From assembly GCA_951406725.2 (NCBI GenBank), contig OX597831.1, positions 4,898,001 through 4,962,000 on the forward strand: DNA of 64,000 nucleotides, in the 5' to 3' direction. Below the pieces are notes generated by a model, which worked only from the letters and a program-made list of their open reading frames with translations, made no database searches and was not told the origin of the DNA. Positions 10,332 to 26,040 of this stretch are shown one piece after another. Origin of the DNA: Octopus vulgaris. Its lineage: Eukaryota. Made by a program: the position numbers and the translations under genes. Positions within the stretch are counted from its first letter, which is position 1; each line of letters starts with the position of its first letter.

Positions 10332-10703
10332 TTCTTTTCTACTCTAGGCACAAGGCTCGAAATTTTGACCCAGTATGTAACTGGTACTTAATTTATCGAC
10401 CCCGAAGGGATGAAAAGCTAAGTCGACCTCGACGGAATTTGAACTCAGAACATAAAGACAGACGAAATACCTATTTCTTTACAACCCACAAGGGGCTAAA
10501 CACAGAGAGGACAAACAAGGACAGACAATCGGATTAAGTCGATTATATCGACCCTAGTGCGTAACTGGTACTTAATTTATCGACCCCGAAAGGATGAAAG
10601 GTAAAGTCGACCTCCGTGGAATTTGAACTCAGAACGTAACGGCAGACGAAATACGGCTACGCATTTTGCCCGGCGTGCTAACGTTTCTGCCAGCTCGCCG
10701 CCT
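10332..10703 (-). mobile_element. SINE family B, tandem dimer
   Basis: Reverse complement of ggcggcgagctggcagaaacgttagcacgccgggc...ttctgagttcaaattcc..gaggtcgacttt.cctttcatcctttcggggtcgataaattaagtaccag, present as two units. Confidence 0.85.
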
Positions 10704-17808: not shown

Positions 17809-18578
17809 GGCGGCGAGCTGGCACGCCGTTACGTCTGCCGTTACGTTCTGAGTTCAAATTCCGCCGAGGTTGACTTTGCCTTTCATCCTTTCGGGTTCGA
17901 TAAATTAAGTAACAGTTACGGACTAGGGTCGATATAATCGACTTAATCCGTTTGTCTGTCCTTGTTTGTCCTCTCTGTGTTTAGCCCCTTGTGGGTAGTA
18001 AAGAAATAGGTATTTCGTCTGCCGTTACGTTCTGAGTGCAAATTCCGCCGAGGTCGACTTTGCCTTTCATCCTTTCGGAGTCGATTAAATAAGTACCAGT
18101 TACGCACTGGGGTCGATATAATCGACTTAATCCGTTCGTCTATCCTTATTTGTCCCCTCTGTGTTTAGCCCCTTGTGGGTAGTAAAGAAATAGTTATTTC
18201 GTCTGTCTTTATGTTCTGAGTTCAAATTCCGCCGAGGTCGAATTTGCCTTTCATCCTTTCGTGGTCGGTAATTCAAGTACCAGTTACGCACTGGGGTCGA
18301 TGCAATCGACTTAATCCCTTTGTCTGTCCTTGTTTGTCCCCTCTATGTTTAGCCCCTTGAGGGCAATAAAGAAATAAGAAACGTTAGCACGCCGGGAGAA
18401 ATACTTAGCAGTATTTCGTCTGCTGCTATGTTCTGATTTCAAATTCCGCCAAGGTCGACTTTGCCTTTCATTATTTCGGGGATCGATAAATTAAGTACCA
18501 GTTGCGTACTGAGGTCGATCTAATCGACTGGCCCCATCTACCCAAATTTCGGGCCTTGTGCCTAGAGTAGGAAAGGAA
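17809..18578 (+). mobile_element. SINE family B, head-to-tail array of four units of about 185-200 bp
   Basis: Units at about 17809-18009, 18010-18191, 18192-18376 and 18377-18578, each containing gttctgag..caaattccgccgaggtcgactttgcctttcatc...gtcgat..aatcgact. Confidence 0.9.
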
Positions 18579-24089: not shown

Positions 24090-24804
24090 ACTTTCACTCA
24101 AAATGTTCGGATCGAACTGAAGCTTTAATAAAAAAGAAACAGAAAGCACTCGCTCAAGTGGAATCGAACCCTGGATCTGGTGATGAAGAAGCAAACTTCC
24201 GAACCATTCGACCATATTAAGCTTGAAACAAACTCTGTGTGTGTGGTGGTGGGGGGCGTGTATATATGTATAAATAGTCAAATAGTATAACCCTTTACTA
24301 TGGCATATAAGTGTCCTCATGACAGAAAATTTGTTTTAGAAACGTGGTCTCCTCCGTTTGCGGACTAGAGAATGGGAAAAAAAGGATGCAAGCACGGTTA
24401 ACCCACTTTGGCCATAGTTGAAAATCATAGGAGACAACTCTCGTTCCTCTCTCTCAGAAAGGTTTTCTTTTCTTAATGAAGCAAATCAAATACAAACAGC
24501 AAAATTCCAAAAGGCGTTCTCTATTAGTAATATTAGACTGATGCACGCGTCAATGCATGTCTGTAATCACAATAGTGAATTAGGTGGAGTGAAAATTTAA
24601 AAATTTGTGGAAATTGAAAATGTCTGAGAGCTAGAATGTTGTTATATTTGATTACTAGAAAAATGTTAAAATTTCGCTCTTGACTTTGCAAAAGCTCTTC
24701 TATAGGTTTTTTTCATGTATGATTTGCCATCTTGGAAAAGCTGGGAAATGGCAGTGGTGGAAAATGGAGGCACTTCAAAGGAAACACAAATAGTGGCCCT
24801 CTCT

Positions 24805-25027
24805 TATTTCTTTATCACCCACAAGGGGCTAAACATAGAGGGAACATACAAGAGGATTAAGTCGATTAGATTGACTCCAGTGCGTAACTGGTACTTAATT
24901 TATCGACTCCGAAAGGATGAAAGGCAATGTCAACCCCGGCGAAATTTGAACTCAGAACGTAACGGCAGACGAAATACCGCTAAGCATTTCGCCCGGCGTG
25001 CTAACGTTTCTGCCAGCTCGCCGCCAT
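24805..25027 (-). mobile_element. SINE family B, part of a tRNA-SINE chimera
   Basis: Family B copy on the minus strand running from head to tail. The TSD gtggccctctct (24793-24804 and 25076-25087) encloses both it and the tRNA fragment. Confidence 0.9.
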
Positions 25028-25076
25028 TGGTGGTCAGCATGGGGCTCGAACCCACGACATTCGCATTATCAGCACG
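25028..25076 (-). pseudogene. Retrocopied 3' fragment of tRNA-Ile (positions 28-76, anticodon GAT, CCA encoded)
   Basis: The minus strand reads cgtg-ctGATaa-tgcga-atgtc-gtggg-ttcgagc-cccat-gctgacc-a-CCA. It fits standard tRNA numbering 28-76 exactly and resembles metazoan tRNA-Ile(AAT) ...CGTGCTAATAACGCGAAGGTCG.GGGTTCGA.CCCC... Confidence 0.85.
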
Positions 25077-25184
25077 TGGCCCTCTCTGATATGCCCTCAG
25101 CTTCCCTCGATGGCTACGCAGACGATACGAAAGTCTCGTAGAAAATACAAAAGCCTAGCGATGTTGCAAGCCCGCAGCGGGAGT

Positions 25185-26040
25185 TAGATGCAATTTACAG
25201 ATAGGTTGAGGACAATAATATGCAGTTTAATGATGGAAAATTTCAAGCCCTGCACTACCAGAACCCAAAATTGAACGAAAAAGCATACACAGTACACTGG
25301 TCTAGTGGGGATTACAATCCCAAGCCCAAAATCAGTGCGTGACCTGGGTATCGACTTGAGTGATGATACCTCTTTCCAAGTGCACATTACCAAGATGACG
25401 ACAACGTGCAAACGGCTGGATGGATCCTGAGAACCTTCAGAACCAGAGATGGTCCTCTGGAGGACATTCGTTATCAGCTGCTCCCAAAAATGGTCCCCCA
25501 CAGTGTACAATTAACAGCGGATCTTGAAGCATACCAACAAAAAAGATCGTCTCATTGCAACAGCTCAGCTACTGGGAATGGCTGAAACAGCCAAGGCACC
25601 ACTCCCTGGACCAAAGGCGGGAGAGATATACAGTAATATACATCTGGAAGGGATTGTACCAAATTTTGGCATTGAAAGCTACGCTGGTCGCCACTACACA
25701 GGGCAAAAGATCCCAACACTGCCGTCACGTTTCAGGACCAGTTACTGTAACAGCATGGGCTTCAAGGTGCCACAGCTTTTTAATATTCTCTCAAAGAGCT
25801 TGAGGGACCTACACAACGTAGATGTAGGTGTTTTCAAAACAAAACTGGATCTTTTCCTGTCGGGAGTCCCAGATGAACTTACCTTGCAGCAGGAGGGGTA
25901 AATGAGGGTAGCGACATCAAACTCCCTTATTCACCAAATGCCACATATCAGAGGAGGCTCTCAATAAGAACAGTGTAGCAAAACGGCGGTGCACCAACAT
26001 GACCGAAGCTTTGAGCTGAAACTGTTAAAAGATAAAAGAT
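25185..26040 (+). mobile_element. CR1-group LINE (family L) 3' fragment, degraded RT C-terminal region
   Basis: Frameshifted motifs LDAIYR*VEDNNMQFNDGKFQALHY, RDLGIDLSDDTSFQVHITK, WILRTFRTRD, SYWEWLKQ...RRERYTVIYIWK and FRTSYCNSMGFKVPQLFNILSKSLRDLHNVDVGVFKTKLDLFL. Tail ggcggtgcaccaacatgaccgaagc...ctgaaactgttaaaagataaaagat. Confidence 0.85.

Follow-up and report, generated by a model that had tools for sequence, protein, structure and literature searches.

The window analysed here, a stretch of 64 kb of DNA, contains on its minus strand, between 24793 and 25087, the 3' part of a tRNA-Ile ending in CCA, placed 5' of a SINE of family B in sense orientation relative to the SINE, the two together lying within a decayed LINE (Table 1). 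The preliminary description of this DNA had reported tRNA positions 28-76 with CCA, a family-B SINE and a 12-bp duplication around both, and all three are found where it had placed them, the SINE being full-length and the duplication exact.

Table 1. Features of the chimeric insertion and its host LINE, in window coordinates.
Feature	Position	Strand	Basis
Host: decayed LINE, reverse-transcriptase region, right flank	25088..25500	+	Paralogues, ORF remnants
12-bp target-site duplication, 5' copy; last base shared with tRNA C28	25076..25087	-	Exact repeat
Fragment of tRNA-Ile(AAT) origin covering positions 28-73, with G at the wobble position, 34 (25070)	25031..25076	-	42/46 identical to parent genes
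CCA end of mature tRNA	25028..25030	-	Present in 1/88 Ile-like loci, namely this one
Two bases (AT) at the usual 5' dinucleotide position of the SINE family	25026..25027	-	AA in most copies
Full-length family-B SINE with both native ends, shorter than most copies by ~10 bp	24805..25025	-	
3' copy of the 12-bp target-site duplication	24793..24804	-	Exact repeat
Host: same LINE, left flank	24750..24792	+	11/14 paralogues match it upstream of the site

The arrangement can be read directly from the DNA. Within the 64-kb window the 12-mer is present in exactly two copies and is missing from the opposite strand, and the repeat is not extendable; since C28 is common to the tRNA and the repeat, the tRNA copy starts at position 28 or 29. 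Over the 46 positions compared, the fragment differs from the tRNA-Ile(AAT) of this genome by A34G, C39T, A66G and G70A. ARAGORN found no tRNA in the window and Rfam nothing relevant, and there is thus no complete cloverleaf at the locus, as expected from a tRNA piece that is 5'-truncated; with no match from either program, a functional tRNA-Ile(GAT) gene was rejected as its identity. The 3' end of the SINE at the duplication is native and matches the end of other near-full copies. The two bases between CCA and SINE, first described as a linker, are indeed present, but the chimera is not peculiar in having them: in the 22 places where the family head is matched exactly, the preceding dinucleotide is AA in 16, AG in three and TT, GA and AT in one each, the AT being the chimera itself, and in several plain SINE insertions this leader lies inside the target duplication. 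Because the two bases occupy the usual leader position of the family, the SINE of the chimera is complete to its 5' end, in agreement with what end-to-end jumping predicts. Family B has 13 additional full or partial matches within the window, and bodies of this SINE minus their first ~50 bases form head-to-tail tandem runs at 17829-18529 and 10365-10702.

The host LINE, which we take to be CR1-like, retains reverse-transcriptase-like ORF remnants in its flank, and the repeat family of the right flank comprises 39 paralogues of 77-82% identity among 40 scored. Twelve of 14 paralogous LINE copies align through the insertion site from the first base, each with one 12-mer and no insert, which shows that the 12-bp duplication is real. 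To the left of the site, 48 bp present in most paralogues are missing from the window, abutting the 3' duplication (24750-24804), and this deletion in the host LINE is flanked by short direct repeats.

That the whole unit arrived in one integration, as had been claimed, is supported by the exact duplication, by the single 12-mer in the paralogues, by the similar divergence of the two parts and by the sharing of the insertion with other organisms. Compared with the majority sequence of 30 other near-full copies, the SINE has 15 substitutions in 221 positions (6.8%, within a range of 3.0-11.7% for the 31 copies), and the tRNA piece has three changes relative to its parent in 45 positions (6.7%, position 34 left out). 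In organism D, one contig covers 25021-25140, including flank, tRNA, CCA and SINE start, with two differences and with G34 unchanged, and a left-flank contig reaches 25 bases into the SINE tail. In organism B, the left join matches that of the window, with 23 differences in 380, and three differences are seen in a contig that spans 25030-25140. Since both carry the insertion, it is older than the splits from these two organisms. The comparison with related species that had been proposed yielded both parts of the chimera in organisms B and D, and no empty orthologous site with one 12-mer was seen in the public contigs; three sequencing runs (X3, X19 and X20) gave no contig across the join and are uninformative as to presence or absence.

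We consider it very improbable that the unit was built by two insertions, with a tailless tRNA retrocopy arriving first and the SINE landing later between CCA and the 3' duplication. Solitary tRNA retrocopies flanked by duplications do occur in this genome (L142 with 15 bp and L164 with 13 bp), and the family-B SINE is very abundant. However, no separate duplication flanks the SINE of the chimera, although one of ~9-14 bp (judged by eye) is usual around plain copies of the family. The divergence of the SINE equals that of the tRNA part, the orthologues have both parts, and in eight independent joins in this genome, including the present one, the SINE always begins one to four bases after CCA. 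Serial insertion would have to bring in a SINE lacking a separate duplication, at this offset, in all eight cases. A single chimeric insertion accordingly remains the preferred reading.

The parent gene was sought through genome-wide pattern searches for tRNA-Ile over 2.8 billion bases, in which a tight pattern gave 62 matches and a looser one 88, all 88 of which were inspected. Position 34 is A in 81 of these Ile-like loci, G in six and T in one, no full-length clean tRNA-Ile(GAT) gene occurs among the 62 or the 88 matches, and CCA follows position 73 at the window locus alone. These counts bear out the predicted parent, a tRNA-Ile(AAT) gene without encoded CCA, as well as the predicted lack of an intact GAT gene and the mature state of the template. 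For tRNA-Asp, CCA is found in two of the 100 matches listed of 225, and both are SINE joins. Two pieces lie outside the 88 loci, namely L056, a GAT piece with a one-base gap, and L053 (G000:C29:9987250-9987275, minus strand), which lacks the anticodon; L053 comprises tRNA-Ile positions ~48-76 including CCA, has G58 and sits at the centre of an inverted-repeat element whose arms are ~80 bases long. A scan with RF00005, in which 63 candidates were scored and 34 matched, does not represent a tRNA census.

Several arrays of tRNA genes were seen along the way. Ile genes alternate with intron-bearing Tyr genes in a tandem array at G000:C4:51.99-52.04 Mb (L005-L030), tRNA-Asp genes are repeated in tandem with 158-bp spacing at G000:C5:51.23-51.30 Mb, and tandem tRNA-Cys arrays at G000:C12:25.26-25.27 Mb (L063 and L064) include several members with a chance CCA in the trailer.

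The G at wobble position 34 had been explained as inosine read by the reverse transcriptase, and across the Ile-like loci this substitution is distributed in a way that makes the explanation likely at the level of the class. Position 58 is T or G in 10 of the 88 loci, and G34 is present in five of these ten, compared with one of the 78 with unchanged A58 (p=3.7e-5). It is likewise found in four of six truncated copies versus two of 82 longer ones (p=9e-5), in a table of truncations that is approximate, as gapped alignment overextends the window copy to position 21 through the duplication and L037 lies just below the cut-off. Restricting the comparison to the 50 decaying copies with at least one other change leaves both associations in place, with G34 in four of nine copies with changed A58 versus one of 41 (p=0.0025), and in four of six truncated versus one of 44 longer copies (p=3e-4). 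The control substitutions A66G and A73G, each found in 4/88 loci and thus close in frequency to G34 (6/88), show no link to A58 change or to truncation (p 0.25-1.0). The 88-locus pattern placed no constraint on positions 34 and 58, and two such copies were already known when it was designed; the sequence 3' of each dispersed Ile copy was judged by eye.

According to the available text of PMC8062790, reverse transcriptases read inosine as G, methyl-A58 is a site of reverse-transcriptase misincorporation, and I34 and m2,2G26 are nearly always fully modified in mature tRNA. With I34 in that state and with a template that had CCA, inosine reading is favoured, and we hold it very probable that the G34 of the window copy arose when C was inserted opposite I34 of a CCA-ended tRNA-Ile. 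The window copy is nevertheless the sole G34 copy with A58 intact, and its three further transitions include one A-to-G change, so that its own G34 could be a later mutation.

A chimera formed as described, in which G34 is an ordinary later A-to-G mutation and no record of inosine, is quite improbable, even though three other transitions in 46 bases, A66G among them, A66G and A73G frequencies of 4/88 loci each and the presence of the other three changes in organism D (whose sharing of the base thus does not single out G34) can be cited in its favour, as can the absence of G34 among copies of another tRNA. This last observation concerns Thr(AGT), another inosine family, for which G34 occurs in 0/27 strict matches (all 27 being AGT) and in 0/7 dispersed copies. 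All of the dispersed copies have A34 and A58, none has CCA, a changed A58 or truncation near 27, and no copy starting near 27 was present in the best 40 of 59 candidates; the Thr copies tested thus bore no retrocopy mark of mature tRNA and speak neither for nor against the reading of inosine. Against a later mutation stand the expectation that a CCA-ended tRNA-Ile should nearly always bear I34 (PMC8062790, available text), the fact that G34 follows the A58 signature and truncation even within decaying copies, and two G34 copies with only zero and one further change in positions 32-73.

A single tRNA-Ile(GAT) master gene, now lost or escaping detection, or a SINE subfamily with a GAT head is extremely improbable as the common source of the G34 copies. 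T58 is common to four of the six G34 copies, and diverged or unassembled loci can escape pattern searches; yet neither the 62 nor the 88 matches hold a full-length clean GAT gene, and the combination of tRNA, CCA and family-B head is single for Ile. The multi-copy subfamily with a GAT and CCA head that would have offered a simpler origin was accordingly not found. Moreover, the six G34 copies differ in 5' start, in partner and in 3' trailer, the trailers matching those of different AAT genes, and they therefore look independent. Reading of inosine thus remains the preferred source of G34. Five of the G34 copies have precursor-like 3' ends and no CCA, which fits the addition of inosine to precursor tRNAs (PMC4446420, available text). 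The single T34 locus, L162 (G000:C22:18608255-18608287), is a full-length tRNA-Ile copy with T34 and T58 within a TA microsatellite, and its T34 is possibly another misreading of inosine.

The preliminary description had further proposed that copying stopped near m2,2G26, and this part of the claim is compatible with the data but not required by them. A block at dimethyl-G26 should give a copy starting at 27, and the window copy starts at 28/29. The other G34 copies begin at 27, 29, 32, ~21 and 7, and an Asn-like join at ~27, while Asp copies, which have C at position 26, begin at 1, ~23 (twice) and ~32, so that truncation is seen among them despite the lack of G26. Four copies combine A34 with a changed A58, and these extend over all or nearly all of the tRNA. 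Stalling near dimethyl-G26 is possible, at somewhat less than even odds in our estimation, and ordinary 5' truncation, anticodon-stem structure or a tRNA that had been cut beforehand are alternatives to it.

The window locus is not alone in this genome. The genome-wide search for tRNA-CCA before SINE 5' ends that had been recommended brought out further joins and showed that the event is not unique as first described. Generic patterns of T-arm plus CCA gave 63, 17 and 55 matches (12, 5 and 5, respectively, for the reversed controls), and 20 stretches from the 63-match pattern and 17 loci from the other two were inspected. Seven further joins of tRNA, CCA and SINE were found, with one to four bases between CCA and SINE. 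In L058/L079 (G000:C2:27806555-27806640, minus strand), a full-length tRNA-Asp called by ARAGORN is followed by CCA and a full family-B SINE, with a 7-bp duplication. Two other joins involve Asp (L060 with a 9-bp duplication and L057), and the tRNA parts of the remaining four are presumably Asn (L081), Gln (L094) and Gly (L107 and L124), as judged by tRNA consensus; two of these four show T58. Duplications were found in two of the seven joins (L058 and L060), and none for L057, L081, L094, L107 and L124. For Ile, the combination of tRNA, CCA and family-B head has one match genome-wide, the window locus, which is the one Ile case among 17.

Other arrangements widen the class. L142 (G000:C1:159763971-159764043) is a direct retrocopy of a mature tRNA, in which a full tRNA-Lys(TTT) with CCA and T58 stands by itself inside a 15-bp duplication, L164 is a tailless tRNA-Ile with a 13-bp duplication, and L163 joins a precursor tRNA-Ile to a SINE within an 11-bp near-exact duplication. 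The genome thus has a recurring class of mature-tRNA, precursor-tRNA and stand-alone tRNA retrocopies. The suggestion that the window locus shows a route by which SINEs gain a new tRNA head is not supported: positions 1-27 are missing, the added head has no A box and hence no complete polymerase III promoter, the copy is single and the SINE keeps its own head. L058, which retains both promoter boxes and for which no second copy was present among the matches listed, is a better candidate for a composite SINE or head exchange.

A pattern of changed position 58 plus CCA gave 3189 matches, of which nearly all of the 100 listed are internal sequence of another SINE. The tRNA-like 3' end L218 (G000:C1:70748070-70748094), with T58 and CCA, is among the matches listed, and the count of CCA joins may therefore be low. 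Many candidates were set aside as chance or other matches, including the Cys arrays L063/L064 and the Tyr piece L070, L066-L069, L071-L074 and L076, as well as L077, L078, L084, L085, L089, L090, L092, L106, L114 and L118. In L059, CCA is followed by a T-run trailer, and it was not accepted as a join. L065, which is Gly-like with CCA and then a different repeat, was left out of the eight joins as doubtful. L061, L062 and L075 were rejected as joins; in these, a tRNA-Leu-like 3' end with CCA precedes what resembles the start of an LTR, and they are probable primer-binding sites of LTR elements, some of the matches being longer than 18 bases.

Further tRNA copies were noted beside these. Five dispersed full-length tRNA-Lys(TTT) copies with T58 and T-run trailers (L138, L140, L141, L143 and L144) are called as genes by ARAGORN and are possible precursor retrocopies among annotated tRNA genes. 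At nine loci (L031, L036, L040, L044, L055, L131, L221, L223 and L225), a dispersed tRNA copy has its T-run trailer directly before a SINE head, and these are either precursor-tRNA/SINE chimeras or SINEs that landed at terminators; duplications were mostly not found at these nine. In seven others (L003, L038, L041, L042, L043, L046 and L059), a tRNA trailer is followed by no more than the last ~60 bases of a SINE tail, with a near-constant start point.

Our preferred reading, to which we assign a probability of about 0.8, is that the window locus is a single chimeric insertion of the 3' part of a mature tRNA-Ile and a complete SINE, made by a LINE reverse transcriptase that jumped from the SINE RNA to the CCA end of the tRNA and read I34 as G. 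From the anatomy we infer that target-primed reverse transcription would have begun at the SINE tail, inside the older LINE, and that the enzyme would have copied the SINE RNA to its 5' end in a run-off. It would then have jumped end to end from the SINE 5' end onto the CCA end of the tRNA and placed C opposite I34, by which G34 would have become fixed. An early stop on the tRNA may have been followed by closure with the 12-bp duplication, and the resulting copy would have been dead as a tRNA and would not have spread. Weighing against this reading are the 48-bp deletion beside the 3' duplication, the lack of an empty orthologous site among the contigs seen and the finding of duplications at no more than two of the seven other joins.

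A quite improbable alternative is that the tRNA piece and the SINE RNA were ligated first, as has been proposed for U6/L1 via RtcB, and were then copied as one template, which would give the same sense-oriented DNA product with a single duplication. RtcB requires a 3' or cyclic phosphate plus a 5'-OH, and a CCA 3'-OH together with a polymerase III 5' triphosphate would be poorly suited to it. All eight joins have an intact CCA, and the SINE is complete to its 5' end, which also speaks against ligation. Law and Burns (2026, PMC13174262, available text) name RNA ligation beside template switching, and sense chimeras fit both; as both routes lead to the same DNA, it is the chemistry of the RNA ends that favours joining by reverse transcriptase.

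Template jumping by a LINE enzyme has precedents among small-RNA chimeras with non-LTR elements, with which the locus shares one duplication, a small RNA in sense at the 5' side, a native SINE 3' end and an RNA-derived CCA at the join. The closest is R2 in Drosophila, whose 5' junctions include a complete tRNA-Lys followed by CCA as well as 18 nt of tRNA-Gly, both interpreted as the outcome of jumps to mature tRNA (Eickbush and Eickbush 2012, PMC3414825, available text). There too the 5' end of a full-length non-LTR element is immediately preceded by a CCA-ended tRNA, CCA is taken as proof of a mature template, and one case is full length and one 5'-truncated, as is the window copy. Unlike the R2 cases, the unit here has a SINE as partner in place of an autonomous LINE and lies within a target duplication, there are eight examples in one genome, and base changes at modified positions are analysed, which section 8 of the R2 paper does not discuss (PMC3414825). 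The mechanism is already known from R2 and mature tRNA, and what is new here is the SINE partner, the recurrence and the fingerprints of modification.

In the U6/SINE and U6/LINE chimeras (U6-Mon-1, U6-AnolisSINE2, U6-L1, U6-L2 and U6-RTE), of which the U6-SINE forms occur in platypus and lizard, a small RNA likewise lies in sense 5' of a SINE within one duplication, and the arrangement is ascribed to template switching by several LINE clades; the acceptor there is U-tailed U6, in contrast to the 5'-truncated tRNA with CCA found here (Doucet et al. 2015, PMC4476161, available text). Human tRNA/LINE-1 chimeras also combine a co-inserted and usually partial tRNA with a retroelement, with duplications of 9-19 bp, but most of them are 5' halves (nt 1-37) in antisense, for which twin priming is given as the cause, and CCA, inosine and modification do not occur in the main text at hand (Law and Burns 2026, PMC13174262). 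The window piece is a 3' part in sense with CCA, and on this ground a twin-priming chimera was rejected.

The 5' extensions of SINEU-2 similarly place small-RNA sequence 5' of a full SINE, and both their origin by template jump and a role in seeding new SINE heads have been proposed, but there the small RNA is snRNA and some extensions were amplified as subfamilies, whereas here it is tRNA and none was amplified (Kojima 2015, PMC4494074, available text). A new SINE subfamily with a tRNA head was rejected for the window locus, where head and join are single-copy and the A box is absent. Tailless retropseudogenes are tRNA-derived copies with target duplications, which L164 and L142 resemble; the published ones are 3'-truncated and solitary, unlike the window copy, which is 5'-truncated, has CCA and is joined to a full SINE, and was therefore not assigned to them (Schmitz et al. 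2004 via PMC2912911; Noll et al. 2015, PMC5322556; available text). The primer-binding site of an LTR retrotransposon, of ~18 nt at most beside an LTR, was also rejected, as 49 nt lie beside a SINE head here. No report of I34 and m1A58 fixed as base changes in genomic tRNA retrocopies was found in the part of the literature that the search covered, and a retrocopy origin is not discussed in the available part of PMC8007984.

The window locus is a real, old, dead, single-copy chimeric retrocopy that founded no SINE subfamily. Together with the other joins, it indicates that extension onto mature tRNA is open to SINE RNA in vivo as it is to R2 RNA, and that within a single genome this has happened more than once, with at least five types of tRNA. 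This extension is the raw step long proposed for SINE head exchange, and template jumps have been put forward as the origin of SINE heads (PMC4494074, PMC4758252, available text). The link between G34 and changed A58 suggests, in addition, that retrocopies preserve RNA modifications as DNA changes. A broader reading, which we regard as tentative and as falling just short of an even chance, is that the genome holds a fossil tRNA-seq library made by germ-line LINE reverse transcriptases, in which G stands for I34 and T or G for methyl-A58 and the distribution of these changes reflects the stage of tRNA maturation; precursors with few modifications would then have been copied full length with A34, and more mature ones with G34 and with stops at 27-32. 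If this were true genome-wide, it would explain where G34 tRNA pseudogenes come from, the G34 tRNA sequences regarded as 'forbidden' in animal genomes being retrocopies of edited tRNAs, and it would supply annotation with a marker separating retrocopies from genuine tRNA genes. It would also show how modified bases are read by LINE enzymes in vivo, and past modification states would become readable from DNA alone.
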